Source: a virus (taxonomy: Duplodnaviria; Heunggongvirae; Uroviricota; Caudoviricetes). Taken from it: a stretch of DNA of 55,306 nt. The first letter of the stretch is position 1, and every line of letters begins with the position of its first letter. Positions 5,271 through 39,395 of this stretch are shown piece by piece. A program made the position numbers and the translations under genes. The stretch lies in IMG/VR virus record IMGVR_UViG_650377933_000002; one strand, written 5' to 3'. Under the pieces are notes generated by a model. It made no database searches, was not told the DNA's origin, and saw only the letters and a list, made by a program, of their open reading frames with translations.

Positions 5271-5647
5271 TACGCAGGTAGGTAAAGATATGATTGTGGT
5301 GGCTTAATATTACTACCTAGAGCAGAGATAGGAATTGGTTCTTTATATCTTTCCACTTCACCAATTTTTATTGCGTAGGCCTTTTCTCTACCTGAATAAT
5401 ATGAGTCATAAAATTGCTTAGAAATACCTGCGTGTTTTTCCGTCTTTTTCCAAAGAGATTCCGGTTCGTCACTTAGTATTGATTCAATACGGAATTGACC
5501 AACAACTTTACCTAATGGCATCGTGGCATAAATAACAACGGTGCTAATTTGCGGATTTTTGAATATACCTTTACGAAACTCGAACCGCTTTGTTCCGTTC
5601 AATATTTTTTCTGCAAACTCAGGCTTAATGGATAATAAAACTTTCAT
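5270..5647 (-). CDS. ASCH-domain protein
   Basis: 125-aa ORF with the ASCH signature GxKxxExR near the N-terminus (NGTKRFEFRKG); ATG start overlaps the 3' end of the upstream gene by 23 nt (operon). Confidence 0.7.
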   Translation of the reverse strand: MKVLLSIKPEFAEKILNGTKRFEFRKGIFKNPQISTVVIYATMPLGKVVGQFRIESILSDEPESLWKKTEKHAGISKQFYDSYYSGREKAYAIKIGEVERYKEPIPISALGSNIKPPQSYLYLPA

Positions 5648-6766: not shown

Positions 6767-7459
6767 CTATCCATGCTTCCTATACGTCTGCGGCATGCTC
6801 CCAATAACTTTCCCGAAGATAAATACCCGGTTCATCTCATCTTTCTCGATCGGGTCCCACGGTGAGTAGCTTTTGTTATCAGAGATAACCAGCAGCTTAT
6901 CCTTCATCATTTGCAGGCGCTTTACATGGGCTGTGTCGTCGTACAGAAACGCATAGATACCATCACCGTCGAAAGATTTAACCGTGATATCAACGAATAG
7001 AAGATCACCAGGTTCAATCGTTCCTGACATGCTGTCACCGCGTACGTTAATGATGCGGATATTTTCTGCCTTCCTACCATCGAACATGTGACGAGCATCG
7101 TCAAACGAGTACTCAACCGAGCGTAGAACTTCTACAAACTCACGGTTGATGACTCCCGGCCCGGCACTCACTTCTATATCAAGAACGTCAATCTTGAAGT
7201 ATTTGGGATGGTTGGCAGTAGGCTTCCCTAATTGTTGACCGTCATTTCTCATCGGGCCTATGCCTGATGAGAGCCACTCTGTTCGAACACCCAATGCATT
7301 AGCTATTTCAACAATTTTTGTTGAGCCGCGCGCGTTGCCGCTTGTCAGTCTCCAGATTGTGGGTTGAGCTACGCCAGACGCCTTTGCAAGAGCGCCTTGA
7401 GACATTCCAGATTGTTCCATCGCTAGGTTTAAGCGATCAGCAAGAGTTTCTTTTTTCAT
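6767..7459 (-). CDS. CI-like repressor (HTH + LexA/S24 peptidase-like domain)
   Basis: ORF 6767..7495; ATG at 7459 (MKKETLADRLNLAMEQSGMSQGALAKASGVAQPTIWRL..) gives 230 aa with an N-terminal XRE-type HTH and a C-terminal S24-like region (..GDSMSGTIEPGDLLFVD..); the 7495 start would be TTG and would cover an operator-like palindrome; no SD, consistent with a leaderless repressor mRNA. Confidence 0.8.
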   Translation of the reverse strand: MKKETLADRLNLAMEQSGMSQGALAKASGVAQPTIWRLTSGNARGSTKIVEIANALGVRTEWLSSGIGPMRNDGQQLGKPTANHPKYFKIDVLDIEVSAGPGVINREFVEVLRSVEYSFDDARHMFDGRKAENIRIINVRGDSMSGTIEPGDLLFVDITVKSFDGDGIYAFLYDDTAHVKRLQMMKDKLLVISDNKSYSPWDPIEKDEMNRVFIFGKVIGSMPQTYRKHG

Positions 7460-7569
7460 AAGTTTTAATTTATACGCTTGCGTATTGATGGTCAAAACAC
7501 GTTTTGCTATTGTTATGATTAATACGCATTGCTATTATTTATTCATTGTAATACCAATAGGAATTAATA
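7460..7569. promoter_or_regulatory. OR-type operator-promoter region between divergent repressor and cro-like genes
   Basis: 110-bp AT-rich divergent intergenic region with palindrome TACGCTTGCGTA and TTGCTATTG/TTGCTATTA repeats. Confidence 0.55.
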
Positions 7570-11035: not shown

Positions 11036-12562
11036 ATGAAAAAAGCCATAGCATATATGCGATTTTCATCACCAGGTCAGATGTCTGGTGATTCATTAAA
11101 CCGCCAGAGAAGGCTTATTACTGAATGGCTAAAGGTAAATAGTGATTATTACCTTGATACCGTAACGTATGAAGATTTGGGGTTAAGCGCATTCAATGGA
11201 AAGCATGCACAATCAGGAGCTTTTTCGGAATTTTTAGATGCTATAGAACATGGTTACATATTGCCAGGGACTACATTGTTAGTTGAAAGTCTGGACAGAC
11301 TTTCAAGAGAAAAAGTCGGTGAAGCGATTGAGCGTCTGAAATTGATTTTGAATCACGGTATTGATGTTATAACTCTTTGCGATAATACAGTCTATAATAT
11401 AGACTCATTGAATGAGCCATATTCATTAATAAAAGCCATACTTATAGCACAAAGGGCAAATGAAGAAAGCGAGATAAAGTCAAGTCGGGTTAAATTATCA
11501 TGGAAGAAAAAACGGCAGGATGCACTGGAATCAGGCACGATTATGACGGCGTCTTGTCCGAGATGGCTCTCATTGGATGACAAAAGAACAGCTTTTATTC
11601 CAGACCCCGACAGGGTGAAAACGATTGAGCTAATTTTTAAACTCAGGATGGAAAGGCGATCATTGAATGCAATAGCTAAGTATTTAAATGATCATGCTGT
11701 AAAAAATTTTTCAGGAAAAGAAAGTGCATGGGGGCCTTCTGTAATTGAAAAATTATTAGCGAATAAAGCTCTGATAGGTATATGCGTACCTTCATATCGT
11801 GCAAGAGGGAAAGGGATAAGTGAAATCGCTGGCTATTATCCCAGAGTCATATCAGATGATTTGTTTTACGCTGTACAGGAAATTCGGTTGGCACCTTTTG
11901 GTATTAGCAATAGTAGCAAGAATCCTATGCTAATAAATCTACTTCGAACAGTTATGAAGTGTGAGGCTTGTGGTAATACCATGATTGTTCATGCGGTATC
12001 TGGACGTTTGCATGGCTATTATGTTTGTCCGATGAGAAGATTACATCGATGTGACAGGCCATCAATAAAAAGAGATTTGGTTGATTATAATATCATTAAT
12101 GAATTGCTTTTTAATTGTAGCAAAATTCAACCAGTTGAAAACAAGAAAGATGCTAATGAAACTTTAGAGTTAAAAATTATTGAGCTTCAGATGAAAATTA
12201 ATAATTTAATCGTTGCATTGTCTGTCGCGCCTGAAGTTACCGCTATAGCAGAGAAAATAAGACTATTAGATAAGGAATTACGAAGGGCTTCGGTATCATT
12301 AAAAACTTTGAAGAGTAAAGGGGTGAGTTCACTTGGTGATTTTCATGCTATTGATTTAACCAGTAAAAATGGGCGAGAGCTATGTCGTACACTTGCCTAT
12401 AAAATATTCGAAAAAATTATAATTAATACAGATAATAAAACCTGTGATATCTATTTTATGAATGGCATTGTTTTTAAACACTATCCTTTAATGAAAGTAA
12501 TATCCGCCCAGCAGGCGATAAGTACTCTTAAATATATGGTTGATGGTGAGGTTTATTTTTGA
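11036..12562 (+). CDS. ybcK: serine recombinase (resolvase N-terminal domain + recombinase domain), DLP12 YbcK-like
   Basis: 508-aa ORF; N-terminal resolvase-like region (..AYMRFSSPGQMSGDSLNRQRRLI..LLVESLDRLSRE..), Cys-rich zinc-ribbon-like segment and coiled-coil C-terminus; AT-rich; adjacent to emrE as in DLP12. Confidence 0.8.
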   Translation: MKKAIAYMRFSSPGQMSGDSLNRQRRLITEWLKVNSDYYLDTVTYEDLGLSAFNGKHAQSGAFSEFLDAIEHGYILPGTTLLVESLDRLSREKVGEAIERLKLILNHGIDVITLCDNTVYNIDSLNEPYSLIKAILIAQRANEESEIKSSRVKLSWKKKRQDALESGTIMTASCPRWLSLDDKRTAFIPDPDRVKTIELIFKLRMERRSLNAIAKYLNDHAVKNFSGKESAWGPSVIEKLLANKALIGICVPSYRARGKGISEIAGYYPRVISDDLFYAVQEIRLAPFGISNSSKNPMLINLLRTVMKCEACGNTMIVHAVSGRLHGYYVCPMRRLHRCDRPSIKRDLVDYNIINELLFNCSKIQPVENKKDANETLELKIIELQMKINNLIVALSVAPEVTAIAEKIRLLDKELRRASVSLKTLKSKGVSSLGDFHAIDLTSKNGRELCRTLAYKIFEKIIINTDNKTCDIYFMNGIVFKHYPLMKVISAQQAISTLKYMVDGEVYF

Positions 12563-12886: not shown

Positions 12887-12914
12887 AGCCCGCATAAGTG
12901 CGGGCTGCTTTTTA
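12887..12914. terminator. intrinsic terminator-like hairpin (probably bidirectional)
   Basis: AGCCCGCATAAGTGCGGGCT hairpin followed by GCTTTTTA on the plus strand; lies directly at the 3' end of the minus-strand esterase gene. Confidence 0.55.
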
Positions 12915-13955
12915 CAGGTCAGCGTTTGTTTTTTGTTGTTGGGTAGCGGTTTTTATGGGGGTTCCCAGGTTTTTAGTAAACCACTCAACAACTCTGTTTA
13001 TAATAATTGGCTGATACCATGTATTATCGCCATGCTCGGCCCCTTCTACCAGCACGTACTCAGCGTTATCACCGTTCTTCTTCAACATCCTGAATAGTTT
13101 GGCGCTTTGCTCAGGTGAAACCAGAGTGTCTTTGCTACCATGCATAATAAGAAATGGGGGTTTTACTCCTTTCATATGTCCGATTGGACTGGCGTTTAGC
13201 GCTTTTTCTTTTGACGCTGTGATGGGGGCTCCCGCAAAATTTCTGAATGCAGGGCCATTGATCATTAAGGCTTCGGTTACGGCAGGAGAGCGATGAACCT
13301 CCTGCACTGATTCAGGGAACCCCTCGCCAATATTCAACAAGTCAGAAATCCCATAAAGTGTGGCAACTGCCTGAACATCTGAGGATTGCTGAAGAAAGTC
13401 ACCTTTATCAAAGGTTTTGTCACCATTTGTAGTTCCCATCATCTGGGCAAGCCATCCACCGGCAGAGTCACCCAGAACTCCGATTCTTTGAGGATCAATC
13501 CCATAATTGCTGGCATGCTCTCTCAGGTAACGTATTGCAGCTTTTCCATCCTCAACTGGTGCTGGAAATGTATCAGGAATTGTTCTGTATTCTACAGCGG
13601 CCACAACAAAACCAGCTTCTGCCAGAGCCATTCTCATTTCAATAAATTTGTCATGTTCAGAAGACATGAATCCGCCGCCGGGATAATAAATAATGGCTGG
13701 TTTTAAATCATTTGTTCGCGGGACAAGAACTGACATGTGAAGCTGTCTGACAGAACGAGTTCCTTTTATCTGGGAATAAACAACATCACCAATGAGATCG
13801 ACCTGGTTTCTGGTCGGTGAAACACTAATGATATCTGCACCCGGGGTGTAACCAGGAAGATTAGTCTGGACAGGTGTTGCACAACTCCCGACCGACATGG
13901 CCATTGACATACCATACAATAGTGTTGCAGATGATAATATCTTGTTAATTTTCAT
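12912..13955 (-). CDS. secreted alpha/beta-hydrolase (esterase/lipase family)
   Basis: 347-aa ORF with N-terminal signal-peptide-like segment (MKINKILSSATLLYGMSMAMSVGSCA), HGGG-type oxyanion motif (YYPGGGF), nucleophile elbow GDSAGG, and a downstream His. Confidence 0.8.
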   Translation of the reverse strand: MKINKILSSATLLYGMSMAMSVGSCATPVQTNLPGYTPGADIISVSPTRNQVDLIGDVVYSQIKGTRSVRQLHMSVLVPRTNDLKPAIIYYPGGGFMSSEHDKFIEMRMALAEAGFVVAAVEYRTIPDTFPAPVEDGKAAIRYLREHASNYGIDPQRIGVLGDSAGGWLAQMMGTTNGDKTFDKGDFLQQSSDVQAVATLYGISDLLNIGEGFPESVQEVHRSPAVTEALMINGPAFRNFAGAPITASKEKALNASPIGHMKGVKPPFLIMHGSKDTLVSPEQSAKLFRMLKKNGDNAEYVLVEGAEHGDNTWYQPIIINRVVEWFTKNLGTPIKTATQQQKTNADL

Positions 13956-16464: not shown

Positions 16465-17547
16465 TTAGAACTGATAAACCAGACCTACAGCGACGATGTC
16501 GTCGGTATCAATACCAGCTGTTTTGGTAAACTTACTATCGTCAATTAAGTTGATTTTGTAATCAACAAAAGTGGACATGTTTTTATTAAAGTAGTAAGTA
16601 GCACCGACATCGACATACTTGACTAAGTCTCGGTCACCATGAACACCAAGGTCTTTACCTTTTGACTGAAGGTAAGCAACAGATGGTCGCAGACCGAAGT
16701 CAAACTGATATTGTGCTACTGCTTCAAAGTTTTGTGCTTTGTTTGCAATATGGTTATTACCAAAAACGGTCATATTCTGAGTTTCAGAATATGTGGTAGC
16801 CAGATAGATATTGTTCGCATCATATTTCAGGCCTGCAGCCCATACTTCCGCATTTTTGCCGGAGGCATTGAATTTGCTCTTACCATAGGCGACCTGACCG
16901 TCAGTGCGATCTGATTTAGCATAGGTTGCACCCACGCCGAATCCTTCATACTCATAAGTAGTGGAGAAACCGAAACCATCACCATTGGCTTCAGTTACGT
17001 CAGTGCGGTCATTTTTACCCTGATACTGAGCAGCAAAGTTCAGGCCATCGACCAGACCAAAGAAGTCGTTGTTACGATAAGTTGCAACACCAGTAGTGCG
17101 ACCAGTCATGAACACATCTGTTTGGGTCCAGGTATCACCACCGAATTCTGGCAGGACGTCAGTCCACGCACCGATGTCGTATGCTACACCGTAGTTACGG
17201 CCGTAATCGATTGAGCCGTAATCACCAAATTTCAGGCCTGCAAATGCAAGACGGGTTTTGTCTTTGGAAGAACCTTGAGATTCAGCACGGTTGCCTTTGA
17301 ATTCATATTCCCACTGACCGAAACCAGTCAGTTGATCGTTGATTTGGGTTTCACCTTTGAAGCCAAGACGGGCATAAGTAGTATCACCATCATCTGCATC
17401 ATTAGAGGAGAAGTAGTGCTTGGCATTAACTTTCCCGTATAGATCCAGCTTGTTACTGTCTTTATTATAAATTTCAGCTGCCTGAGCAGACATCGCCATC
17501 AGTACTGATGCAGCTACAGCAGAAATTGCCACTGTTAATTTTTTCAT
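16465..17547 (-). CDS. nmpC: outer membrane porin (OmpC/NmpC family)
   Basis: 360-aa ORF with signal peptide ([23 protein letters not shown]), classical porin N-terminus ([16 protein letters not shown]...HYFS) and C-terminal aromatic residue (..VGLVYQF). Confidence 0.9.
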
Positions 17548-28073: not shown

Positions 28074-28349
28074 ATGTCTGTATATACAACTGCAGAATTA
28101 CTGGCATCGACCCAGCATCACTTTAAGTTCGATCCGCTGTTTCTGCGCCTGTTTTTCCGTGAAACCTATCCTTTCACCACGGAAAAAGTCTATCTCTCAC
28201 AAATTCCGGGACTGGTAAACATGGCGCTGTACGTTTCGCCGATTGTTTCCGGTGAGGTTATCCGATCCCGTGGCGGCTCCACCTCTGAATTTACGCCGGG
28301 TTATGTCAAACCCAAGCACTTAGCATGGCTTTCTGAGGCTTTCGTGTAG
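28074..28349 (+). pseudogene. E: major capsid protein E, 5' fragment (interrupted by insertion)
   Basis: First 82 codons match lambda E (MS.YTTA.LLA.....FKFDPLFLRLFFRE.YPFTTEKVYLSQIPGLVNMALYVSPIVSGEVIRSRGGSTSEFTPGYVKPKH), then 9 unrelated codons and a stop; the remainder of E resumes at 39388. Confidence 0.9.
28309..28318. repeat. left copy of 10-bp direct repeat AACCCAAGCA (candidate att core)
   Basis: Identical 10-mer at both E/insert junctions (28309..28318 and 39386..39395). Confidence 0.65.
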
Positions 28350-28481
28350 TTGCTGGTTTTTACACTTAATCTTTTGATAATAAAGAATAAGTTTATCTGG
28401 CGCTTTCACTGAATTTTCCTCGTTATCTGTGTGTTGCAATCATCTCTGTATTGCAGCTTGTATTGCTTTTTGGGGCTAAAA

Positions 28482-29717
28482 ATGGCTGGCGAGAACAAAC
28501 TGAGCGACAAAGCGCTTAAAGGATATCTGGGGAAACCCAGAGAAAAGCAGATCACCATTGCTGATGGAAAGGGGCTTTCTATTCGTGTGAGTACTAAAGG
28601 GGCTGTGAGCTTTGTTTTCTTCTACAGGTTAGCAGGTGGCCGGGATGCTCCGGTCTGGCTAACGTTGGGTAAATATCCTGATATGTCACTCAAACAGGCA
28701 AGGGAAAAGCGCGACGAGTGCCGTGGTTGGTTGGCTGACAAACGTGATCCGCGTATCCAGATTAAGATTCAGGCTGAAGAACGCTTAAAGCCGGTCACAG
28801 TGGAGGATGCACTAAATTACTGGTATGAAAATTACTGTAAGGTGCGTCGTAAAACTCATGCTGTAACGCTTGGCAGATTTCGAAAGCATATCTTTCCCTA
28901 TATCGGTCATTTGCCCGTAAATGACACTCACCTATATGAATGGCTGGACTGTTTTGACCGAATTAAACGTAATGCACCAGTTATGGCGGCGTATGTTTTT
29001 TCTGACACTAAATTAGCTCTTCGTTTTTGTCGGGTACGCCAGTACGCGACGTGTGATGCTTTAAAGGATTTGCGCATGAGTGATGTGGGGCAGATTGCAG
29101 GTAAGCGGGATCGGGTTCTGGATGAAGCCGAACTGGGCCAGCTCTGGAAGGCAATTTTTGTCGAGCCTGATTTAAAACTAATGTCTGAATACACGCGAAA
29201 AATGTTTGTGCTTTGTACAGTATTTGGATGTCGAATGAGTGAAGCCCGATTATCTGAATGGAGCGAATGGGATCTCGAAAGTTGGGTTTGGACTGTACCA
29301 AAAGATCACTCAAAAACTGGTGTTGAAATCGTCAGACCAGTACCTGAAATTCTACGACAGTGGGTAACGGATGTTCACGAAGAGACAAAACATACTGGTT
29401 ATGTGCTGGGAAGTCTGCGAATTAGAGAAAGCGTAAGCAAGATTGGGGGGAAAATCGGTAAACGTTTGGGCCATGAAAAACAATGGTCACTACACGACCT
29501 TAGAAGAACGCTATCTACTCATCTAAGTGATCTCGGTGTTGAATTTTATGTAGTAGAACAACTGTTAGGCCATGCGCTACCTGGCGTGGCAGGTGTTTAC
29601 AACCGGAGTAAGTTTATGGCTAAAAAACTGGATGCTCTGGAACTCTGGACTACATATCTCAATAGCATCGCAGGTGCTGATTCAAAAGTGACAATCCTCA
29701 AACAAAAGGCTGGTTAA
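28482..29717 (+). CDS. int: P4-type tyrosine integrase of the inserted element
   Basis: ORF 28431..29717; plausible ATG at 28482 (MAGENKLSDKALKGYLGKP..); C-terminal catalytic region (..WSLHDLRRTLSTHLSDLGV....LLGHALPGVAGVYNRS..). Confidence 0.85.
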   Translation: MAGENKLSDKALKGYLGKPREKQITIADGKGLSIRVSTKGAVSFVFFYRLAGGRDAPVWLTLGKYPDMSLKQAREKRDECRGWLADKRDPRIQIKIQAEERLKPVTVEDALNYWYENYCKVRRKTHAVTLGRFRKHIFPYIGHLPVNDTHLYEWLDCFDRIKRNAPVMAAYVFSDTKLALRFCRVRQYATCDALKDLRMSDVGQIAGKRDRVLDEAELGQLWKAIFVEPDLKLMSEYTRKMFVLCTVFGCRMSEARLSEWSEWDLESWVWTVPKDHSKTGVEIVRPVPEILRQWVTDVHEETKHTGYVLGSLRIRESVSKIGGKIGKRLGHEKQWSLHDLRRTLSTHLSDLGVEFYVVEQLLGHALPGVAGVYNRSKFMAKKLDALELWTTYLNSIAGADSKVTILKQKAG

Positions 29718-29718
29718 C

Positions 29719-29946
29719 ATGAAAAAAATGGCAATTGTTGATAAAAAGGGTCTGGAGTACATTCCTAACATCGATCGTATGATCCGTGAGAAAGAATGTC
29801 GGGAGCTAACCACTCTTGCAAACAGCACACGCTGGAAGCTGGAGAAGGAAGGAAAATTTCCTAAGCGGATCAAGATTGGTTCCACTGCTGTTGCATATCG
29901 TCTTTCAGAAGTGCAGGCATGGATTCGAGGTGAGTGGGTAGTTTAA
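29719..29946 (+). CDS. alpA: AlpA-family transcriptional regulator/excisionase
   Basis: 75-aa ORF 1 nt after the int stop, with AlpA-like HTH (..RELTTLANSTRWKLEKEGKFPKRIKIGSTAVAYRLSEVQAWI..). Confidence 0.8.
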   Translation: MKKMAIVDKKGLEYIPNIDRMIREKECRELTTLANSTRWKLEKEGKFPKRIKIGSTAVAYRLSEVQAWIRGEWVV

Positions 29947-30015
29947 ATTATCTCAGAATAAAATATTATGAATTACTGATTTGAGAATTTGTACTCAAAT
30001 CAGTAATAACATTCT

Positions 30016-30552
30016 TTATAAGAGATTAAATCCAAATAAAGAGTAATCATATACCGGGGTGCATTGCATCCCACTGAATATGCTGATGTTTTTTTCTGTT
30101 TCTATCCTTTTTTCAATAAGTTGTTGTATATTTTTACAGTACAATTTGTGTGTGATGTTATTATCGTAAGCCTGATATAGCAACGTCAATGTTGACGCTA
30201 GGAAACATACAGATAAAATTAAAATAATATATGCAGTTTTTTTATTTTTTGTCCATGATCTATTTGTTTGTGAAATATAAAGAATTCTGAGGTGGATAAT
30301 GGTGAGAGACAATAGCAGGCCACTCAATAAAATAAGTATTGGGTTTGCGTATTTTATTAATGGTTGAGAGCAAAAAACTATTATAGCTCCTGTGACTGCG
30401 TATGAGAAAAAGGAGTGATTAAACTTCTTACTCCTTCTCTCAAGTATTTTAATTTCATCTTGCGTGGGGGTTTTAGATGCCTCTAATATAAGTTTATTGA
30501 ATTTTTCTGTTATCTTGTTTTTTGTGTTTGTGGCTATTTTTTTTAGATTCAT
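30016..30552 (-). CDS. hypothetical membrane protein (AT-rich accessory gene)
   Basis: 178-aa ORF in a very AT-rich segment; at least three hydrophobic helices (..VTGAIIVFCSQPLI..ILILLSGLLLSLTIIHL..AYIILILSVCFLASTLTLLY..). Confidence 0.45.
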   Translation of the reverse strand: MNLKKIATNTKNKITEKFNKLILEASKTPTQDEIKILERRSKKFNHSFFSYAVTGAIIVFCSQPLIKYANPILILLSGLLLSLTIIHLRILYISQTNRSWTKNKKTAYIILILSVCFLASTLTLLYQAYDNNITHKLYCKNIQQLIEKRIETEKNISIFSGMQCTPVYDYSLFGFNLL

Positions 30553-30902
30553 AGCATTCTAACTCCCTTAACTTATTTATTACTTTCTCTTTATGATAAG
30601 AGAGGGGAATGACTTGGTAAAGTGATTTGTCATTAATAATGATAATCCTTGCGATAAATATTTCTGCAAGTTATTTATCTGTTTGTTGCTATCTTGTTAA
30701 GCGTTGGGTGTGGTTTATGTTTGGAGTGACTTTATTTAATCGTGATTTTATGGATTTATATTTATATCCTGTAAGATAAGCGCATGTTAGTTCAGGAGTA
30801 GTGTCAGATAAAATTATTCGGAGTAGAACTACCTTTTCTGTTTATTGCCAGTATTTACATAGCAATGCGCCGTAGTTACTCACATCACGGCGCTGATACT
30901 AA

Positions 30903-31205
30903 TTATTCAGATTCTTTGGCTTTACGCCGCTGGAGTTCTTCACGAGCGACGGCTACGAGTTGCCCGATTTCCTCCGCTACCTTGATGCCGATTTGTTCGA
31001 CCTTAGCTAAGGCATCCAGTGAAGACACGAGGGGATTTTCTCCGCTTCCTTCTGCCTGGCGGCGGGCGATCTCACCGCGCATGGCGGTTACTATGAATCC
31101 GGCGTTGCTTTCGCCGTCCAGTTTTACGGATTCCATGCCCTCCATAACATCGTGGGGAACCCTGATCGTTGTCATTTGCGATTTTGCATTTTTGTATACA
31201 GACAT
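30903..31205 (-). CDS. putative transcriptional regulator of the element
   Basis: 100-aa ORF divergent from the replication operon and separated from it by an operator-like repeat region; charged coiled-coil-like C-terminus; function inferred from position only. Confidence 0.4.
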   Translation of the reverse strand: MSVYKNAKSQMTTIRVPHDVMEGMESVKLDGESNAGFIVTAMRGEIARRQAEGSGENPLVSSLDALAKVEQIGIKVAEEIGQLVAVAREELQRRKAKESE

Positions 31206-31413
31206 AGTTAATCACCAATTTGTTATGTGTATATCACTATACACAAAAGTGAGATATAAAAACACTTGCAATGTATATCACCACAATATAATGTATATCT
31301 CACATTATGGTCGCTATGTATCTCACAATGATCGATTCATAAAAACGACGAAACCCGGCAGTGCGCGAACACTAACCGGGCTTCTAACCAAACCGTTAAA
31401 CGAGGTAACGACT
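31206..31413. promoter_or_regulatory. divergent promoter region with repeated TGTATATC(A/T)CA operator-like motifs
   Basis: Four or more copies/inverted copies of GTGTATATCAC, GTGAGATATA, TGTATATCACC, TGTATATCTCACA, TGTATCTCACA within about 110 bp. Confidence 0.5.
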
Positions 31414-31704
31414 ATGGCTGGAACACAGCATACCCAAACTCACCCTAAATTTATATACATCTTTCTGGCGCTACATCGCGATCGCATAGCAGATGGAGCA
31501 ACTACGGTACATGTAGCCGCTGACACGCTGTTTATTCAGAAATGTGAAAACAATTTCATCTGGCGTTTTATCGCCCTGAGTACGGCACAACCGCGCGTGA
31601 TTACCATCGAGGCCACCAGCGAACAGGAAGCCCGCCAGCAATCCCCAACTGGCTGCGTGATGATATTCGCCGCCCGTATTCGTCAGGAGGTGTGCCATGA
31701 ATGA
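31414..31704 (+). CDS. hypothetical protein (first gene of the rightward operon)
   Basis: ORF 30865..31704 is long only because of an upstream GC-rich read-through; ATG at 31414 with GAGG RBS gives 96 aa; stop overlaps the next start. Confidence 0.4.
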   Translation: MAGTQHTQTHPKFIYIFLALHRDRIADGATTVHVAADTLFIQKCENNFIWRFIALSTAQPRVITIEATSEQEARQQSPTGCVMIFAARIRQEVCHE

Positions 31705-31921
31705 TCTTTATTTTAAAGTGCTGACACATGCTGAAAACGCGCTCGTTTGTGGCAAAAATATGCGAGAAATCTTATCAACCTGGCTTGATGGGACAACAAA
31801 TGCGGAACACGATGAACGGGATGCTAATTTAGCTGGAGCGTTAATTACGTTACTTGATCCTGTCATCAAAGAGCTGGATGAAGCTATAAAAATACACGAC
31901 CAGAGCTATACCGGAGAATAA
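31697..31921 (+). CDS. hypothetical protein
   Basis: 74-aa ORF, start overlapping the previous stop (translational coupling). Confidence 0.4.
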   Translation: MNDLYFKVLTHAENALVCGKNMREILSTWLDGTTNAEHDERDANLAGALITLLDPVIKELDEAIKIHDQSYTGE

Positions 31922-31923
31922 AA

Positions 31924-32211
31924 ATGAAAAATAAATTTTCTGGCTTTATTGCCAGCGGTCAAACTCATTCAAAAATCAGCCTTGGGGATATTTTCAAAGA
32001 TAGCTATGGCTATCGAGTAAAGATTATTTCGGTTGATGATCGCCGTGTCTCTTATTTGCGTGATGGTTATGATTTTGAATGTGTTATGCCGCGTCAGCAG
32101 TTCGAAAGAGATTTCATTCTGGTAAAAAATTGCAAGACAGATAATCAGAGGCGTTCCGCAGGCTATATCCGCAAAATTCGGGCAATGTTAGTTGCCGGAG
32201 GTAACAAATGA
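31924..32211 (+). CDS. hypothetical protein
   Basis: 95-aa ORF; stop overlaps the primase start. Confidence 0.4.
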   Translation: MKNKFSGFIASGQTHSKISLGDIFKDSYGYRVKIISVDDRRVSYLRDGYDFECVMPRQQFERDFILVKNCKTDNQRRSAGYIRKIRAMLVAGGNK

Positions 32212-34028
32212 AACGTGCTCCGAACTTAAAATACCAACCGCGCGACAAAATGACAGAAGTCATCATTTTTGCTGGCAGTGATGCCTGGAGCCATGCAAAA
32301 GAATGGAATGAATGGGCGGGTAAGCATATTGCAGCAGATGATACACCACCAGTCATTCTGGGTACGGAACAACTGGAAAACCTGGATGATATGCAAATTA
32401 TCGATGAAGGCCGTCATTATGTGCGTGTTTATCGTGCCGGAAAGATCGCAGAGAAAAATCTGACGAAGGTTGCGACATTACTTGCTATTGCAGGCGTAAA
32501 GGAAGCACGTTGTTACCGTAGCTTTGTTGATCGAGAGCCTGAAGACTGGACTCCGCGCCTTGTCGGCCTAAAAGCTGAAGCGGAGCATGGGGAAAGTCTG
32601 GTGATTGAACTGCCAGTGAAGAAGGCAGAGCGCAAAAATGACGAGCGTGCTTCATCTTTGGCGTTGAATCAGATGGGGGCCAGCCAGCGCGGTGAAGTTC
32701 TCCTGGCACATTACGGCGGCGAACTGGCAATCAATGCCGACTCTGACACCGTTCATCATTACAACGGCGTTGTATGGGAGCCGGTTCAGGATAAAGAGTT
32801 ACAGCGTGCTATGGCGCAGATTTTCATTGATGCGGAGATCAGCTATTCGCAGAACGCCATTAAATCGGCGGTAGATACCATGAAGTTAAGTTTGCCTGTA
32901 ATGGGGAATACAGCCCGTAACCTGATTGGATTCAGTAACGGGGTATTTGATACCAGAACTGGTAATTTTCGGGAGCATAACAAAAACGACTGGTTGTTAA
33001 TTGCCAGTGAATTACCTTTCAGCCCACCAGCAGAGGGGGAAACGCTGGCAACACATGCGCCGAATTTCTGGAAGTGGTTGCGCCGTTCGGTGGCTGAGAA
33101 TGACCGCAAGGCAGATCGCGTACTGGCGGCATTATTCATGGTGCTGGCGAACCGGTACGACTGGCAGTTATTCATTGAGGTAACAGGGCCGGGGGGAAGT
33201 GGTAAAAGTGTGATGGCGGAGATTTGCACCATGCTGGCGGGTAAGGCTAATACAGTATCAGCAAGCATGAAGGCGCTGGAAGATGCAAGGGAACGTGCGT
33301 TAGTGGTTGGCTTTTCGCTGATTATCATGCCGGATATGACCCGCTACGCTGGTGATGGGGCAGGGATTAAGGCCATTACAGGCGGTGACAAGGTGGCAAT
33401 TGACCCGAAACACAAAGCCCCCTATTCAACGCGTATTCCGGCAGTAGTGCTGGCGGTTAACAATAACGCCATGTCATTCAGTGACCGCAGCGGGGGGATC
33501 TCACGTCGTCGGGTGATATTCAATTTTTCGGAAGTTGTACCGGAGAACGAACGCGATTCGATGCTGGCGGAAAAAATAGAAGGTGAGCTGGCGGTAGTGA
33601 TTCGCCATCTGCTTACACGGTTTGCTGATCAGGACGAAGCCAGACGCCTGTTATATGAGCAGCAGAAATCTGAAGAAGCACTGGCGATAAAGCGAGAGGG
33701 GGATTCGCTGGTGGACTTCTGCGGCTATCTCATGGCATCGGTAATGTGTGATGGCCTGTTAGTGGGTAATGCTGAAATTGTGCCATTCAGCCCACGCAGG
33801 TATCTCTATCATGCCTATCTGGCTTATATGAGGGCACATGGGTTTGGTAAACCTGTAACACTGACGCGCTTCGGTAAAGATATGCCGGGGGCAATGGCGG
33901 AATATGGCAGGGAGTATATGAAACGGAAAACGAAGCACGGTTTGCGTTCAAACGTGACACTGACGGAGGAATCAGAAGACTGGATGCCATCATGTGTATC
34001 GGTCACTAATGACGATAGCAAAAATTAA
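32208..34028 (+). CDS. primase/helicase (P4-alpha-like, SF3-type P-loop NTPase)
   Basis: 606-aa ORF with GGAGG RBS; Walker A VTGPGGSGKS and downstream Walker B-like acidic stretch (LIIMPDMT); followed by an iteron array. Confidence 0.8.
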   Translation: MKRAPNLKYQPRDKMTEVIIFAGSDAWSHAKEWNEWAGKHIAADDTPPVILGTEQLENLDDMQIIDEGRHYVRVYRAGKIAEKNLTKVATLLAIAGVKEARCYRSFVDREPEDWTPRLVGLKAEAEHGESLVIELPVKKAERKNDERASSLALNQMGASQRGEVLLAHYGGELAINADSDTVHHYNGVVWEPVQDKELQRAMAQIFIDAEISYSQNAIKSAVDTMKLSLPVMGNTARNLIGFSNGVFDTRTGNFREHNKNDWLLIASELPFSPPAEGETLATHAPNFWKWLRRSVAENDRKADRVLAALFMVLANRYDWQLFIEVTGPGGSGKSVMAEICTMLAGKANTVSASMKALEDARERALVVGFSLIIMPDMTRYAGDGAGIKAITGGDKVAIDPKHKAPYSTRIPAVVLAVNNNAMSFSDRSGGISRRRVIFNFSEVVPENERDSMLAEKIEGELAVVIRHLLTRFADQDEARRLLYEQQKSEEALAIKREGDSLVDFCGYLMASVMCDGLLVGNAEIVPFSPRRYLYHAYLAYMRAHGFGKPVTLTRFGKDMPGAMAEYGREYMKRKTKHGLRSNVTLTEESEDWMPSCVSVTNDDSKN

Positions 34029-34039
34029 ACTTATGGAAT

Positions 34040-34275
34040 AACTGTTCACCACTGTTCACCCTGTCATAAATATCTTTTATATCAGTATATTATAGGGTGA
34101 ACAGTTATTTATGAACTGTTCACCAAACTATTCACTGTTCACCTTTTTGATTGTTTATTGAGCTTCAAGGGTGAACAGTAGTGAACAGTTGGTGAATAGT
34201 TTTTGTGAAACTGTTCACCCATTAACATTATGAATTAAAAGAGAAAATATCAAAAGGTGAACAGGTGAAGGGTTA
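34040..34275. repeat. iteron array (about 9 copies of CTGTTCACC in both orientations), candidate replication origin of the element
   Basis: ACTGTTCACC at 34041 and 34051, GGGTGAACAGTT at 34095, AACTGTTCACC at 34114, CACTGTTCACC at 34133, GGGTGAACAGTAGTGAACAGTTGGTGAATAG at 34169..34199, CTGTTCACCC at 34211, GGTGAACAGGTGAAG at 34257. Confidence 0.75.
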
Positions 34276-34315
34276 AAACGCAAAAATTTTAATTTACTGC
34301 TGTGAGATAAAGCCT

Positions 34316-34561
34316 ATGACAGCGAAGCACACAAAAAAATCACAATCGCACGCCCTTGATTTGACGGAACACTGGTTAAGGGTGTCGATAAAAATCATCG
34401 ACCGCAACGCCGGGGAAGGATACGCGAAAGCACATCCCGAACTGATTAGCGCATTCATGACAACGGCGGCTGCAAACTTTGCCACTCTGACCGAACGGGA
34501 GATTGCTGAAGCGGAGGAAGTGACAACAATCAATATTAAGTCCGGAGAGCAGGCAGCATGA
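34316..34561 (+). CDS. hypothetical protein
   Basis: 81-aa ORF; stop overlaps the start of the downstream SSB-like gene (ATGA). Confidence 0.4.
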   Translation: MTAKHTKKSQSHALDLTEHWLRVSIKIIDRNAGEGYAKAHPELISAFMTTAAANFATLTEREIAEAEEVTTINIKSGEQAA

Positions 34562-35007
34562 CGGCGCAAATATCAGTTTACGGGCGGTTGGTGGACGACC
34601 CGCAGACAAAACAGACCAGCAAGGGCACCCCCATGACGCTGGCGCGTATGGCGTTATCACTGCCCTGCAGTCAGTCGGATGACGGTCAGGCGACGATGTG
34701 GTTATCTGTCCTGGCGTTTGGCAGACAAGCCGACGCGCTGGCAAAGCATCACAAAGGCGAACTCCTGAGCGTGGCGGGTAATATGCAGGTGAGCCAGTGG
34801 ACTGGACAGAACGGTGAAACGCGGCAGGGCTGGCAGGTTATCGCAGACAGCGTAATCAGTGCGCGAACGGTGCGACCGGGCGGCAAAAAAGGTCAACAGG
34901 GTCAGGCTACTGACGCACTGAACAGAGCAAAACAACAGGCAGATCAGCAAGGAAGCCATCCACCAGTGGGAGATAATGAACAATGGGGAGATGATATTCC
35001 GTTTTAA
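34558..35007 (+). CDS. SSB-like single-stranded DNA-binding protein
   Basis: 149-aa ORF ending in the canonical SSB acidic tail ..DDIPF preceded by a Gly/Gln-rich linker. Confidence 0.7.
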   Translation: MTAQISVYGRLVDDPQTKQTSKGTPMTLARMALSLPCSQSDDGQATMWLSVLAFGRQADALAKHHKGELLSVAGNMQVSQWTGQNGETRQGWQVIADSVISARTVRPGGKKGQQGQATDALNRAKQQADQQGSHPPVGDNEQWGDDIPF

Positions 35008-35224
35008 ATATTGCCAATAAAAAAGGCCGGAAAAAAATAAATTTTCCGGCATGCTACATAAATCCCGACCAAAGGGAGTGAAGATATTAACACTAATTAT
35101 CCGCGCTGAAGTTGTTATCCCAAAACTTTATACAACATTGCACTCGGTTGCATGTATTCGCATGACAAATATCGGTGATAGCATATATCCACAATTATTT
35201 TTAATGAATGCAAAGAGGATGCGT

Positions 35225-36265
35225 ATGGTTGATTTATATTCGCCTACCCAGCTTGTACAGGTGGTTAATGCTGTAGATGTACAAAAACAACTAAATGCGT
35301 TGTTTACCAGTTTGTTTTTTACTCGCTCGGTAATGTTTGAATCGCGCGATATTATTCTTGATACAATCGACGATCCAAATATCCCAATTGCAGCGTTTTG
35401 TTCTCCTATGGTGGGTAGTAAAGTTTCACGTGACGAAGGGTACGAATCAAAAACAATTCGTCCAGGCTATATGAAGCCGAAAAGCAGCATTGATCCAAAT
35501 AAGTTAGCTGTGCGCCCTGCTGGTGTATCACCTGAGCAATACAATGCTTTTGGAGCGCGTAATATTAAAGTTAAACAGGCGATTGTAAATCAGGCTAAAG
35601 CTATTCGTGCACGTATTGAATGGCTTGCCGTTCAGGCAATCACAACGGGGAAAAATATCATTGAGGGCGATGGTATTGAACGTTATGAGCTGGACTGGAA
35701 TATTAAACCACAAAATATCATCACTCAGTCTGGCGGTGCTGAGTGGTCAGGTAAGGATAAAGAAACTTTTGATCCAAATGATGATATTGAGAGCTACGCA
35801 GAATTTAGTGAGGGCGTCACTAATATCATCATTATGGGCGGTAATGTATGGAAGAAATACCGTTCATTCAGAGCGATAAAAGAGGCTCTGGATACCCGTC
35901 GTGGTTCTAATTCCGAACTGGAAACGGCTCTTAAAGACCTTGGTGATTCGGTGAGTTTTAAAGGGTATATGGGCGATGTTGCGATTGTTGTATACAGCGG
36001 GCGTTATACCGACGAGGACGGAACTGAAAAACATTTCCTTGATCCTGATTTGATGGTGCTTGGCAATACGGCTCTTCAGGGGATTGTCGCCTATGGCGGT
36101 ATTCAGGATCCGGAGCTAATCCGAATGGGGCTGACTAAAGCCGAACTTGCACCGAAAAACTATATTGTGCCTGGTGATCCGGCTATTGAATATGTGCAGA
36201 CACATTCAGCACCACAGCCAATACCGGCCCGCATCAATCGTTTTGTTACCGTTCGCATTGGCTAA
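35225..36265 (+). CDS. lambda E-like major capsid protein encoded by the inserted element
   Basis: ORF 35051..36265; ATG at 35225 with AAGAGG RBS gives 346 aa; clear homology to lambda E (RPGYMKPKSSIDP / ITQSGGAEWSGKDKETFDPNDDIESYAE / DTRRGSNSELETALKDLGDSVSFKGYMGDVAIVVYSGRY versus lambda TPGYVKPKHEVNP / ITQSGGTEWSKRDKSTYDPTDDIEAYAL / DTRRGSNSELETAVKDLGKAVSYKGMYGDVAIVVYSGQY). Confidence 0.8.
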   Translation: MVDLYSPTQLVQVVNAVDVQKQLNALFTSLFFTRSVMFESRDIILDTIDDPNIPIAAFCSPMVGSKVSRDEGYESKTIRPGYMKPKSSIDPNKLAVRPAGVSPEQYNAFGARNIKVKQAIVNQAKAIRARIEWLAVQAITTGKNIIEGDGIERYELDWNIKPQNIITQSGGAEWSGKDKETFDPNDDIESYAEFSEGVTNIIIMGGNVWKKYRSFRAIKEALDTRRGSNSELETALKDLGDSVSFKGYMGDVAIVVYSGRYTDEDGTEKHFLDPDLMVLGNTALQGIVAYGGIQDPELIRMGLTKAELAPKNYIVPGDPAIEYVQTHSAPQPIPARINRFVTVRIG

Positions 36266-36274
36266 GGGGGAGCA

Positions 36275-36616
36275 ATGGCTACTCATTACACTGAACTCAT
36301 GGCTGGCACTGAAGCACTGGTGACTACGCTGGGGATATTTTCAGCTAATAAAGGGGTAATTCCTGCATTTACGCCACTGATGCAGGAAGATGCAACAGGT
36401 GCACTGGTGGTATGGGATGGTTCGAGCGTAGGTAAAGCGGTTTATGTTTCCGCTGTACAAATCGACACCGCGAAAAAAACACAGGCTCAGGTCTATAAGA
36501 CAGGTGTCTTAAATGTTGATGCTCTGAACTGGCCTGAGTCTGTAAAAGAACTGTCAGTAAAGATTGCAGCGTTTGTTGGCTCAGGTATTTCTGTTCAGCC
36601 GCTGGCTCGTGTGTAA
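36275..36616 (+). CDS. D-like head decoration protein encoded by the inserted element
   Basis: 113-aa ORF directly after the E-like gene; weaker similarity to lambda D (..ALVVWDGSSVGKAVYVSAV.. / ..AAFVGSGISV.. versus ..[19 protein letters not shown].. / ..[11 protein letters not shown]). Confidence 0.55.
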   Translation: MATHYTELMAGTEALVTTLGIFSANKGVIPAFTPLMQEDATGALVVWDGSSVGKAVYVSAVQIDTAKKTQAQVYKTGVLNVDALNWPESVKELSVKIAAFVGSGISVQPLARV

Positions 36617-36627
36617 AGGGGGATACA

Positions 36628-37011
36628 ATGCAGAATGATTACAATGACCTTAAGCCAATTGCCGAAATGATGTACCCGAATCCAGCTGTAGAGGAATTAA
36701 AAGCTATCGCTGACAAAATGTGTTTAAGCGAGCGCCTTGTTGATATGAATCAGGTGATGGAAATTACAACCCTGAGTCGGCGTACACTGCTAAACCTTGA
36801 GGCTAGTGGAGAGTTCCCGGAGCGTGTGCAGGTTACGGAAGGGCGTAAGGCCTGGTATTTAAGTGAAGTGATCGACTGGATAAATAATATTCCTCGCGCT
36901 TCTGAATATTGCCGCGTACCTGTCCCAAAAAAGCCAGATGCGGCGCTATGCCTCAAGATTGAGCGTGTACGCCGCAATGCACGGGATGGTCGCTATAAGC
37001 TGATTGGTTGA
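36628..37011 (+). CDS. AlpA-like HTH DNA-binding protein directly upstream of the element cos site
   Basis: 127-aa ORF; central AlpA-like motif (..MNQVMEITTLSRRTLLNLEASGEFPERVQVTEGRKAWYLSEVIDWI..). Confidence 0.5.
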   Translation: MQNDYNDLKPIAEMMYPNPAVEELKAIADKMCLSERLVDMNQVMEITTLSRRTLLNLEASGEFPERVQVTEGRKAWYLSEVIDWINNIPRASEYCRVPVPKKPDAALCLKIERVRRNARDGRYKLIG

Positions 37012-37019
37012 TGAAATTA

Positions 37020-37256
37020 GGGCCCGCTCTGGCTGGCGGGTCCTTTCCGGCGATCTGACAGGCTACGGGGCGTCAGGCGCGCAGTTTTTCTCTATTTATG
37101 GAAATTTTCCGGTTTAAGGCATTTCCGTTCTTCTTCGCCGTAACTTTATGTTTTTATTTAAAATACCCCCTGAAAAGAAAGGAAATGACAGGCGCTGAAA
37201 ACGGGCATTTTGGCCTCTGTCGTTTCCTTTCTCTGTTTTTGTCCGTGGAATGAACA
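37020..37256 (+). other. second cos-like site carried by the inserted element (divergent cosN, conserved cosB)
   Basis: About 215 bp homologous to the phage cos/Nu1 leader at 21901..22117; cosB side nearly identical (..TATTTATG.AAATTTTCCGGTTTAAGGC.TTTCCGTTCTTCTTCGCCGTAAC..GAAAAGAAAGGAAA.GACAGG.GCTGAAAACGGGC.TTTT.GCCTCTGTCGTTTCCTTTCTCTGTTTTTGTCCGTGGAATGAACAATG) but the cosN segment differs (ACGGGGCGTCAGGCGCGCAG versus ACGGGGCGGCGACCTCGCGG). Confidence 0.8.
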
Positions 37257-37451
37257 ATGGAAGTCAACAAAGATCAACTGGCTGACATTTTGGGCAAGAG
37301 TTGTGCAATACTTTTGTCAGACGTAAATATTTTTGAGGAACATTATTATATTGATGTAATTAGAGATATGTTTGATAGGACTAGAAATAAAGCAGACGCC
37401 TTAGTTATGTCAATTGCTGAAATAATAAAGGAAAATAGCAATGATAAATAG
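37257..37451 (+). pseudogene. Nu1 5' remnant fused to unrelated AT-rich sequence
   Basis: First about 12 codons resemble Nu1 (MEVNKDQLADILG versus MEVNKKQLADIFG) then diverge into AT-rich sequence; 64-codon ORF ends at a convergent terminator. Confidence 0.5.
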
Positions 37452-37453
37452 AA

Positions 37454-37477
37454 AAAAGCGGTCACGCGACCGCTTTT
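37454..37477. terminator. bidirectional intrinsic terminator between convergent genes
   Basis: AAAAGCGGTC ACG CGACCGCTTTT palindromic hairpin flanked by A-run and T-run. Confidence 0.65.
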
Positions 37478-37514
37478 ATTATTTGCAAGTTATTTTTTTG
37501 CTGGAGATAAACTA

Positions 37515-38063
37515 TTACTGTTCACCAATTTGCTCTCTAAACTGTGTACTGAACGTATCTAGTTGAGAGACAAATGAATGTGCATTTAAAAATTTATTAT
37601 AAATCTCTTCAGCTGTGCTTTCTAATACAAAAGTAGCATAATTATTATGTGCTAATTTATTTCTTAGCTCTCCGATTTCCATAAAATCAGAGATAGACTT
37701 GGTCAACTCTGTGCTTGATTTTACCTTCTCAATCATAAACTCTTTAAATTTTGGGCCAAAAAAGGAAAAAAACTGGTTTGCATTCCTTTTTTTCCAATCA
37801 AAGAGTGTATGATACTGCCTGGTTAGGGCCTTATTATCGATAAAATCGTGTGTAAGATTACATTGGCTTGGGTTAAGCATACAATGTATCTTAGTTACAA
37901 CTAAAGTTTCAAAATAGCTAGCACATGCTAATAGCATTACTTTTGAAAATTGTGATTTGTAATCATTAGCAAAACTAATCTCATTATGAGTTAGAAGAAA
38001 ATCATAATAACACTTATAGTTATTAAACATACTTTCAATAGAAGTATATCCCATATCCTCCAT
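37515..38063 (-). CDS. HEPN-like protein (Rx4H motif), downstream gene of the DUF262 operon
   Basis: ORF 37515..38096 (GTG); ATG at 38063 lies 4 nt after the upstream stop; C-terminal ..EIGELRNKLAHNNY.. fits the HEPN Rx4-6H motif; strongly AT-rich. Confidence 0.5.
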   Translation of the reverse strand: MEDMGYTSIESMFNNYKCYYDFLLTHNEISFANDYKSQFSKVMLLACASYFETLVVTKIHCMLNPSQCNLTHDFIDNKALTRQYHTLFDWKKRNANQFFSFFGPKFKEFMIEKVKSSTELTKSISDFMEIGELRNKLAHNNYATFVLESTAEEIYNKFLNAHSFVSQLDTFSTQFREQIGEQ

Positions 38064-38067
38064 TATT

Positions 38068-39231
38068 TTACATTCCCTCCAAAATTGTTCTTGCACGTTC
38101 TAGACGTCCAATTACATGCTCTCTTCTTGTTGTTTTATCAGTACTAAATGTCAGAAATTCAGGATCATTTTTAAGCTTATCGATGTAATTCACCGTCACT
38201 TGTCTTATTTTTAGATCTTTATCTTTAAATGAGTCATAAGTTGCAGCATAAAAAATTGACTCAAATAAAGTTATACTCATACGATTCCCACCAGTTCTGA
38301 AATTGATTTCATCAATTCCATCAACACTATCCATAAATTCATTCCATATATTACTAAATAAAGTTATGTCTTTAGTGTCGTAGTTTTTTGCATAATTTGA
38401 GAAATTGTTCAAAAAACCGCTAACTGAGCTTTTGTATTGAGATGTAAAAAGGGACATAGCAAATGTGCGCAATATCGCTTCAATATCACTCAATCGCATG
38501 TCAACAACATTTTTTGAAAGAATTTTTCTCCATGTCTTGTTTTCATTCAATGAAACAAGATTTGAAAGAAAGTCTGAGTGATATAAACTCATACGAATTT
38601 CTTGAGGAGAAAGGTTCATTCCCCCACTATTTAGGCGGTTAAATATTTCAAACATTGCACCATCTTCCGAATCTTGTGCAACCGGTTTGATTACCATATT
38701 TCGTATGGTTGCCAGATTTAAAGTGGTTTGAAATTCGTTTAATGTTTCATAGTTTTTCCCATTAAACTTGTTTTTTTGGGTGTCTGATAGACCATCAAGT
38801 TTTAGGTTGAACTTTGTGAAGTATTCATCATTGTGAAGAATGTTTTCTGGAATGTTTCCATTATCTTCAAAGATTTTTCTCAGTTCAGAACGTTTCTCTT
38901 TTCTAGGGAATACACCATTTACAAAGTAATAAAGGGTCATTAATCTCTGCTGACCATCTATCACTAAAAATTCATTTTTATCTTGTTCATATAAAAATAT
39001 TTGAGGTATAGGAAGGCCTATTAAAAGAGATTCAATGAGTTTTGATGCTCGTTTGATATCCCAAACATAATGCCTTTGAAAGTTAGGGATTTTAAAAACT
39101 TTTGATTTAATAAAACTTATAATTGTGATTATATTAAAATCATTGGGCGTAGTAGTAAGTTGAAACTCATCAATTGGATAGGATTCTGGCTCATCCTCGT
39201 ATTGCTTTTCTTCATAATCTTCTGGTTGCAT
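38068..39231 (-). CDS. DUF262 (ParB-like nuclease/NTPase superfamily) protein
   Basis: ORF 38068..39279 (GTG); ATG at 39231 (MQPEDYEE..) preceded by AAGGA; hallmark DUF262 motif ..FLVIDGQQRLMTLYYF..; strongly AT-rich. Confidence 0.7.
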   Translation of the reverse strand: MQPEDYEEKQYEDEPESYPIDEFQLTTTPNDFNIITIISFIKSKVFKIPNFQRHYVWDIKRASKLIESLLIGLPIPQIFLYEQDKNEFLVIDGQQRLMTLYYFVNGVFPRKEKRSELRKIFEDNGNIPENILHNDEYFTKFNLKLDGLSDTQKNKFNGKNYETLNEFQTTLNLATIRNMVIKPVAQDSEDGAMFEIFNRLNSGGMNLSPQEIRMSLYHSDFLSNLVSLNENKTWRKILSKNVVDMRLSDIEAILRTFAMSLFTSQYKSSVSGFLNNFSNYAKNYDTKDITLFSNIWNEFMDSVDGIDEINFRTGGNRMSITLFESIFYAATYDSFKDKDLKIRQVTVNYIDKLKNDPEFLTFSTDKTTRREHVIGRLERARTILEGM

Positions 39232-39385
39232 CGTGTCATCCTTTTTCTTCGTGAATATGGTTTTTAGACAAGTCCTCACTACACATATCTGTATTGCAGA
39301 AAGTATTGCAGTGATAGGAGTTGCGTAGATATATAAACCACAAAGCTAAGTGAAATCAAATAGTTCTTTCGGGATTGACTCATGT

Positions 39386-39395
39386 AACCCAAGCA
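39386..39395. repeat. right copy of 10-bp direct repeat AACCCAAGCA (candidate att core)
   Basis: Identical to 28309..28318; immediately followed by the in-frame continuation of E. Confidence 0.65.

Follow-up and report, generated by a model that had tools for sequence, protein, structure and literature searches.

A DUF262-HEPN gene pair at the end of the helper-embedded satellite Eco567.11capE: a probable anti-phage system of the PD-T4-2 type

What is the function of the two AT-rich genes that close a phage satellite lodged in the capsid gene of a lambda-like phage? The question is raised by the window studied here, i.e., the whole stretch of 55,306 nucleotides of IMG/VR virus record IMGVR_UViG_650377933_000002 (Caudoviricetes), which is 100% identical to Escherichia coli NRG857c. 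The two genes, hereafter A and B, form an operon that occupies the final cargo position in an element of 11 kb with its own integrase, at positions 28309-39395 of the window. This carrier is Eco567.11capE (hereafter 11capE), the founding helper-embedded phage-inducible chromosomal island (PICI), recognised by the same 10-bp identity block (PMC10111431). A first-pass annotation, made from the sequence alone, had suggested that the pair is a two-component defence or toxin module. From profile searches, comparative genomics and published work, we conclude that the operon probably encodes a PD-T4-2-type defence of two components against phages, and that 11capE carries it as interchangeable cargo in its 3' accessory slot.

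The gene pair and its proteins

The listing of open reading frames (ORFs) and the sequence itself place genes A and B, in this order of transcription, on the minus strand, with the following features:

38068..39231, minus strand: gene A, whose 387-aa product combines an NTPase domain of the ParB-like DUF262 (GmrSD_N) family with a C-terminal domain made of helices
38064..38067, minus strand: A-B junction of 4 nt, read from the sequence (the TAA of A ends at 38068 and the ATG of B stands at 38063)
37515..38063, minus strand: gene B, whose product (182 aa) is a stand-alone HEPN from the RiboL-PSP family and the predicted RNase effector
37454..37477, no strand assigned: bidirectional intrinsic-terminator hairpin, from a terminator scan and an inverted repeat, with a perfect 10-bp stem including 5 GC pairs
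39232..39328, minus strand: cassette-specific upstream region with the ribosome-binding site AAGGA, 82% conserved with the copy in an Enterobacter hormaechei satellite

Gene A starts with an ATG behind AAGGA, a GTG-extended frame of 403 aa being likewise open. For gene B, the alternative to the ATG at 38063 is a GTG at 38096, which would lengthen the protein to 193 aa and produce a 29-nt overlap with A; the first-pass annotation had described two tightly coupled genes with either spacing, and both options are present. The 4-nt spacing is favoured by the N-termini of homologues (MEDxGY...) and by the RefSeq proteins WP_001182199.1 (387 aa) and WP_000389900.1 (182 aa). The 193-aa version was rejected, since homologues begin at the MEDxGY position instead. 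Ahead of gene B, within the last part of gene A, there is a GGAGG sequence, which points to translational coupling of the two genes. At the local base composition, stop-free runs of 387 and 182 codons would arise by chance with probabilities of ~4e-15 and ~2e-7, respectively. The contrast in composition perceived at first pass was confirmed by measurement, the GC content being 0.313 in the operon, 0.445 in the remaining satellite and 0.55-0.56 in the lambda-like flanks.

Protein A matches GmrSD_N (DUF262) at 1.9e-35, its sole above-threshold match in Pfam (123 bits, curated cutoff 33). The IDGQQRL hallmark, which had suggested this domain at first pass, is part of the motif VIDGQQRL at residues 90-97, and an alignment of 42 sequences from many phyla showed no variation in the nucleotide-binding motif DGQQR, in an FQR motif or in an RLN..GG..QE.R block. 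No DUF1524/HNH nuclease was found in protein A by the Pfam search. Among the PADLOC models, the best score was obtained with NsnA (200 bits, 9e-60, profile positions 22-380 of 385), PD-T4-2_A was matched essentially over its full length (131 bits, 1e-38), and the GmrSD-like models (HEC-05/06 and SspE) were matched by the first 50-110 residues only.

Protein B matches the Pfam family HEPN_RiboL-PSP (PF18735) at 1.9e-13, with 51 bits against a curated cutoff of 28.4. Its ELRNKLAH motif, also pointed out by the first-pass annotation, occupies residues 132-139 and includes R134 and H139; the residues R134, N135 and H139 (R-N-x3-H) do not vary in any of three alignments, of 40, 44 and 76 sequences, and both this motif and that of A are thus conserved across phyla. 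With the PADLOC model PD-T4-2_B, the similarity of protein B was marginal (19 bits, 2e-4). Mean column identity across phyla is ~54% for A versus 45% for B. None of the NCBIfam models matched A or B, and a sequence search of the PDB yielded marginal matches only, to BrxU (0.044) and Csm6 (0.054). The B family is large, as an exhaustive profile search returned at least 864 clusters at 50% identity, including 391 at E <= 1e-30, and nearly all of these clusters consist of proteins of ~180 aa. Two members depart from this length or layout: P0272 (403 aa) bears a C-terminal fusion with a weak match to the uracil-DNA-glycosylase superfamily (0.0031, below the Pfam cutoff), and P0252 has a winged-helix helix-turn-helix (HTH) at its C-terminus.

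The notion of a two-gene module, put forward at first pass, finds its strongest evidence in synteny. With one genome per species, we located 46 B loci, distributed over at least eight phyla, and by a profile hidden Markov model built from A an A-family ORF abuts B upstream on the same strand at 45 of these 46; an unrelated SEC-C/ParE-like gene stands upstream at the lone exception. The loci belong to Gammaproteobacteria, Alphaproteobacteria, Streptomyces, Dehalococcoidia, Bacteroidota, Firmicutes, Verrucomicrobia and Leptospira, so that Proteobacteria, Actinobacteria and Chloroflexi are among the phyla represented. Between homologues of A and B, the junction varies from 8 nt of overlap to 3 nt of spacing. 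In four distant pairs, found in Aeromonas, Aquirhabdus, Candidatus Albibeggiatoa and a Bacteroidota metagenome-assembled genome, a GmrSD_N gene of ~385-400 aa is located directly upstream of B, within neighbourhoods that are otherwise unrelated, and the module has no third gene. Two of these four adjoin restriction-modification genes (Eco57I-type in Aquirhabdus; a Dcm methylase and an HNH gene in the Bacteroidota genome), and those of Aeromonas and Albibeggiatoa lie in the chromosome, with neither a phage nor a satellite close by. Further copies are carried by other elements: a 93%-identical pair fills the same slot in a helper-embedded satellite of Enterobacter hormaechei, a 67% pair adjoins the integrase of a relaxase-bearing mobilisable element in Salmonella, and a 40%/37% pair adjoins a methylase in Akkermansia phage Chambord. 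A megablast search of the operon against phage genomes gave no match. The A-B pair is a self-contained mobile module.

The terminator hairpin is located 38 nt 3' of the stop codon of B, is flanked by runs of A and T, and scores on both strands. At the other end, the operon promoter should be located within 39232..39328; a weak TTGATT-18-TATATA arrangement at 39359-39330 fell below the scan criteria and is not claimed as a promoter. Two repeats were observed in this region. The 12-mer TCTGTATTGCAG occurs near each end of the satellite, at 28445-28456 and 39288-39299, and a direct repeat of TGCAATAC stands at 39291-39310, just upstream of gene A; these repeats could represent integrase arm-type sites or an operator of the cargo promoter. 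Two natural variants of the operon were also found in E. coli, namely that of strain MSHS 133, with an IS2 inserted ~100 nt upstream of gene A, and that of strain CT282, where the HEPN gene is divided into two ORFs and gene A is intact. Both hint at a cost of carriage and decide nothing.

The satellite and its cargo slot

The surroundings of the operon were delimited by comparison with sister elements, and two further features are needed to describe them:

37295..39328, no strand assigned: variable AT-rich cargo cassette of ~2.0 kb, GC 0.316, bounded by sister-shared sequence
39386..39395, no strand assigned: attR core AACCCAAGCA (10 bp), within gene E, the lambda-like major capsid gene; attL copy at 28309-28318

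11capE, inserted in gene E, has an E-like capsid gene and a D-like decoration gene of its own. Sister elements harbouring the same late block integrate in a portal gene, beside clpS or beside tRNA-Ile. Using blastn against six sister elements, homology was found to end at 37100-37294 and to restart at 39329-39388, and these limits enclose the cassette. The capsid-decoration-AlpA block of the satellite is present in 366 complete E. coli genomes and the operon in 31, with at least 99% identity in all of them. In the sisters, the same slot is filled by a TIR gene (IAI39 and Rb-23), a DUF2971 gene (382634_2f) or an 'abortive infection family' gene (ST69), all on the minus strand. The operon is encoded on the strand opposite to all other annotated 11capE genes and to the helper late operon.

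These observations agree with the first-pass proposal that satellite ends act as defence hotspots, and that the slot is a variable hotspot for defence cargo is well supported. Immune systems have been reported at either end, 5' or 3', of PICIs (PMC11364771), and the hotspots described for PICI, P4 and P2 elements (Fillol-Salom 2022; Rousset 2022) are likewise variable, AT-rich, oppositely oriented slots near the cos and att end, where isolates differ in the immune genes that they carry; the present case differs in that the carrier is a helper-embedded PICI within the helper capsid gene. The paper describing 11capE makes no mention of DUF262, HEPN or cargo, and its opposite-strand genes are given as hypothetical (PMC10111431).

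The left edge of the cassette deserves separate description. A 64-aa chimeric ORF on the plus strand (37257-37451) shows small-terminase homology to the sisters up to position 37294 by blastn, and from there continues into the AT-rich cassette. Its first ~13 codons (MEVNKDQLADILG) appear to resemble the start of lambda Nu1, and the intergenic stretch just upstream of this Nu1-like start (~37060-37250) looks, by eye, like the cos region of lambda in a second copy. An imperfect inverted repeat of 25 nt is located within this cos-like stretch, at 37176-37232. The position assigned to the operon at first pass, between a cos copy and the right junction, is consistent with these landmarks, as the cos-like stretch and the truncated Nu1-like start span ~37060-37294 and attR lies at 39386-39395. 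The sister satellites hold an intact small-terminase (Nu1-like) gene of 168-180 aa at that site, so that in 11capE most of this gene has been removed by the arrival of the cassette or by a later deletion. The loss of this gene might affect the packaging of 11capE.

A second AT-rich patch (30016-30552, minus strand; GC ~0.31) was observed in the 5' accessory zone of the satellite. It corresponds to an orphan 178-aa gene that has no Pfam or PADLOC match, and the corresponding zone of the sister satellites holds a TIR-domain or BRO-N gene.

Known relatives, proposed mechanism and rival explanations

The first-pass annotation did not recognise the pairing as a named system, and in this respect it has to be amended. 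The combination of DUF262 with a PF18735 HEPN corresponds to PD-T4-2 of E. coli ECOR65, listed as 'DUF262, HEPN' by Vassallo 2022 in Tables S1-S3 (PMC9519451); by HHpred, its protein A was assigned to PF03235 and its protein B to PF18735 as top hit, at 97.8% (PMC9519451). The ECOR65 proteins are RCO39066.1 and an unannotated partner (QOYX01000002:338334-339873). Cloned PD-T4-2 protects against T4, and its deletion from ECOR65 raises T4 plaquing (PMC9519451). Earlier still, a RiboL-PSP-HEPN 'in operon with ParB' was recorded in 2013 by Anantharaman et al., whose class of RiboL-PSP-HEPN or MAE_28990-HEPN with ParB already predicts the arrangement found in the window. A literature search for WP_001182199.1 and WP_000389900.1 gave no result.

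PD-T4-2 and the window pair are both two-gene operons of the E. coli accessory genome in which a PF03235 protein without DUF1524 is accompanied by a small stand-alone PF18735 HEPN. They differ in length, PD-T4-2 being shorter (1540 bp versus 1717 bp in the window), and protection against T4 has been demonstrated for PD-T4-2 only. Judged by profile scores, the window clade appears to be a distant sister of PD-T4-2, with B reaching 2e-4 on PD-T4-2_B. The score of A on PD-T4-2_A has to be read with care: all NsnA-like DUF262 proteins tested, including those of IncX1 plasmids and of phage P2_4B2, score ~120-160 bits on that model and higher on NsnA, and we attribute such scores to shared architecture or model breadth, not to orthology or membership. 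The best description of the window pair would be that of a widespread member clade of the PD-T4-2-type ParB/DUF262-HEPN class, distinct from PD-T4-2 proper.

Other DUF262-containing systems were compared on the same grounds. PD-lambda-5 includes a methyltransferase, unlike the window pair. GmrSD, BrxU and SspE are single chains whose C-terminal DUF1524 HNH DNase cuts or nicks modified DNA, whereas the window encodes a separate predicted RNase, and protein A has 387 aa versus 560-600 aa for BrxU and SspE; a type IV reading of this kind was discarded, since the fused C-terminal DUF1524 that it requires is not in A. Also rejected were a type II toxin-antitoxin of the HEPN-MNT kind, the HEPN partner being here DUF262 and not MNT, and a type III AbiF-like HEPN system, which would have a tandem-repeat antitoxin RNA upstream of the HEPN gene (neither tandem repeats nor an antitoxin RNA were detected in the cassette, and no Rfam match exceeded the gathering score). 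A tblastn search of A against phages and plasmids returned other DUF262 and HEPN pairs, none of them PD-T4-2 by PADLOC score. Phage P2_4B2 (30104-31979) harbours a DUF262 and HEPN_MAE_28990 pair at the end of its P2-like genome, past replication and DNA methyltransferase genes; conjugative IncX1 plasmids of E. coli and Salmonella (p573-5, 28361-30001) harbour a DUF262 and PF18735 HEPN pair directly after the replication gene. The HEPN partners of these two pairs have no BLASTP similarity to B, and PD-T4-2_B recognises neither.

In GmrSD, BrxU and SspE, modified DNA is sensed by DUF262, whose NTPase activity turns on the fused DNase. By analogy, protein A, a DUF262 NTPase of the ParB fold, would act as sensor and switch, recognising invading and possibly modified phage DNA. 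Binding or hydrolysis of NTP at its DGQQR site would cause a conformational change, its helical C-terminal domain being putatively of the DNA-binding type, and this switch would license the separately encoded HEPN protein B, in place of a fused DUF1524 DNase. The Rx4H site of B would then cleave tRNA, rRNA or mRNA, whereupon translation would stop and the infection would abort or stall. Three features fit this sensor-to-RNase model: the NTPase motif of A is invariant, a translationally coupled HEPN with an intact Rx4H takes the place of the DNase, and the two genes are strictly co-inherited. The data show which domains are present, that their catalytic motifs are conserved, that A and B are strictly syntenic and coupled, and that the pair resides on mobile elements and in a hotspot; within the model, we infer the defence phenotype, the trigger, a physical contact between A and B, the RNA target and the abortive outcome.

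Three points weigh against the assignment to a PD-T4-2-type defence system. The PD-T4-2_B model is matched, weakly, by 17 of 44 and 16 of 76 members of the B family (best E-values 7e-7 and 8e-5, respectively), and as most members escape it, the phenotype of PD-T4-2 cannot simply be transferred to the window pair. The mechanism of PD-T4-2 is itself uncharacterised (PMC12065111), and reviews group it with Menshen and Dazbog among the uncharacterised DUF262 systems without DUF1524, so the sensor and effector roles proposed here lean on the analogies with GmrSD, BrxU, SspE and Menshen. Finally, the promoter scan found no consensus sigma-70 promoter upstream of A.

One alternative views the operon as stabilising the satellite by addiction, in the manner of a toxin-antitoxin system, with B as a constitutive HEPN toxin, A as its protein antitoxin, and defence as a by-product at most; a cell that lost the element would die. 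The tight coupling of the genes would fit such a role, as would the split HEPN next to an intact A in CT282, which is expected if B is costly. However, A is large (387 aa), located upstream, more conserved than B and endowed with an invariant NTPase motif, all atypical of labile antitoxins; its architecture is that of the sensor in GmrSD, BrxU and SspE, and of the proposed sensor in Menshen; and PD-T4-2 is not among the toxin-antitoxin-like systems of Vassallo et al. We therefore consider addiction quite unlikely. Still less probable, in our view, is a role in the life cycle of the satellite, by which the operon might act against the helper or against lambdoid competitors, or adjust late gene expression of the helper, its antisense placement being regulatory. 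This idea draws on the location of the operon inside a helper-embedded PICI, antisense to 11capE genes and to the helper late operon, and on the removal of most of the Nu1-like small-terminase gene by the left edge of the cassette. Conversely, the pair also exists at chromosomal sites without phage or satellite (Aeromonas, Albibeggiatoa) and in a relaxase-bearing mobilisable element, so its function is not tied to the satellite, and unrelated genes of defence type fill the slot in sister satellites.

The score of A on NsnA raises the question of a degraded Menshen system (Millman 2022; Bell et al. NAR 2025), i.e., NsnA devoid of NsnB and NsnC and placed by chance beside an unrelated HEPN gene. 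NsnA, for which a role in sensing DNA ahead of an RNase effector has been proposed, has the same architecture as protein A (ParB-DUF262 followed by a helical 'ParBDB'), and A scores higher on it (200 bits) than on PD-T4-2_A (131 bits). Menshen, nevertheless, includes the ABC-ATPase/DUF3696 protein NsnB and the inPIN/BECR effector NsnC, where the window has a single HEPN gene instead; the NsnB and NsnC models match neither protein of the operon, and the flanking genes in RefSeq comprise no ATPase or further nuclease. Given also that the A-HEPN pairing, lacking any third gene, is conserved across phyla at 45 of 46 loci, and that the ranking of NsnA above PD-T4-2_A is common to all NsnA-like DUF262 proteins tested, a Menshen remnant is very improbable. 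A PD-T4-2-type anti-phage system is our preferred explanation of the operon.

A bolder extension of this explanation can be formulated, to which we give a small chance as a whole: the pair would represent a large, phylum-spanning sister clade largely missed by PD-T4-2_B models, and the antisense operon would be silenced by helper late transcription. According to the published model for 11capE, helper late transcription continues into the satellite. If the extension were true, transcriptional collision would turn off a potentially suicidal RNase system just as its own helper enters the late phase, leaving the system armed against foreign phages.

Other low-GC genes of the prophage and significance of the pair

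Several genes outside the satellite also stand out by composition. An AT-rich 357-aa gene (5625-6698, minus strand) lies beside a cI-like repressor gene (6767-7495; HTH and S24 peptidase); Pfam gives no domain for it, its entire length is matched by PDC-M11A, a candidate defence family of PADLOC (1.9e-133), and an overlapping 125-aa ORF at 5270-5647 may be its partner. Three other low-GC prophage genes encode a large serine recombinase (11036-12562, plus strand), a BD-FAE/alpha-beta-hydrolase esterase (12912-13955, minus strand) and a Gram-negative porin (16465-17547, minus strand).

Part of what is reported here is already known, as the pairing has been named, the carrier has been published, and accessory slots of satellites holding immune genes are an established theme. 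What is modestly new is a clade distinct from PD-T4-2, broad and with near-perfect synteny, with a poorly detected effector, placed antisense in a helper-embedded satellite. PD-T4-2-type systems have been validated but have an uncharacterised mechanism, and the clade adds to them a second lineage that is well conserved and in which the catalytic residues are clear; natural variants of it are at hand: the split HEPN, the upstream IS2, and the 93%, 67% and 40% copies on other mobile elements. The scores obtained here indicate that current profile sets under-detect DUF262-HEPN systems. For 11capE itself, a probable function is assigned to genes that were left undiscussed in its description.

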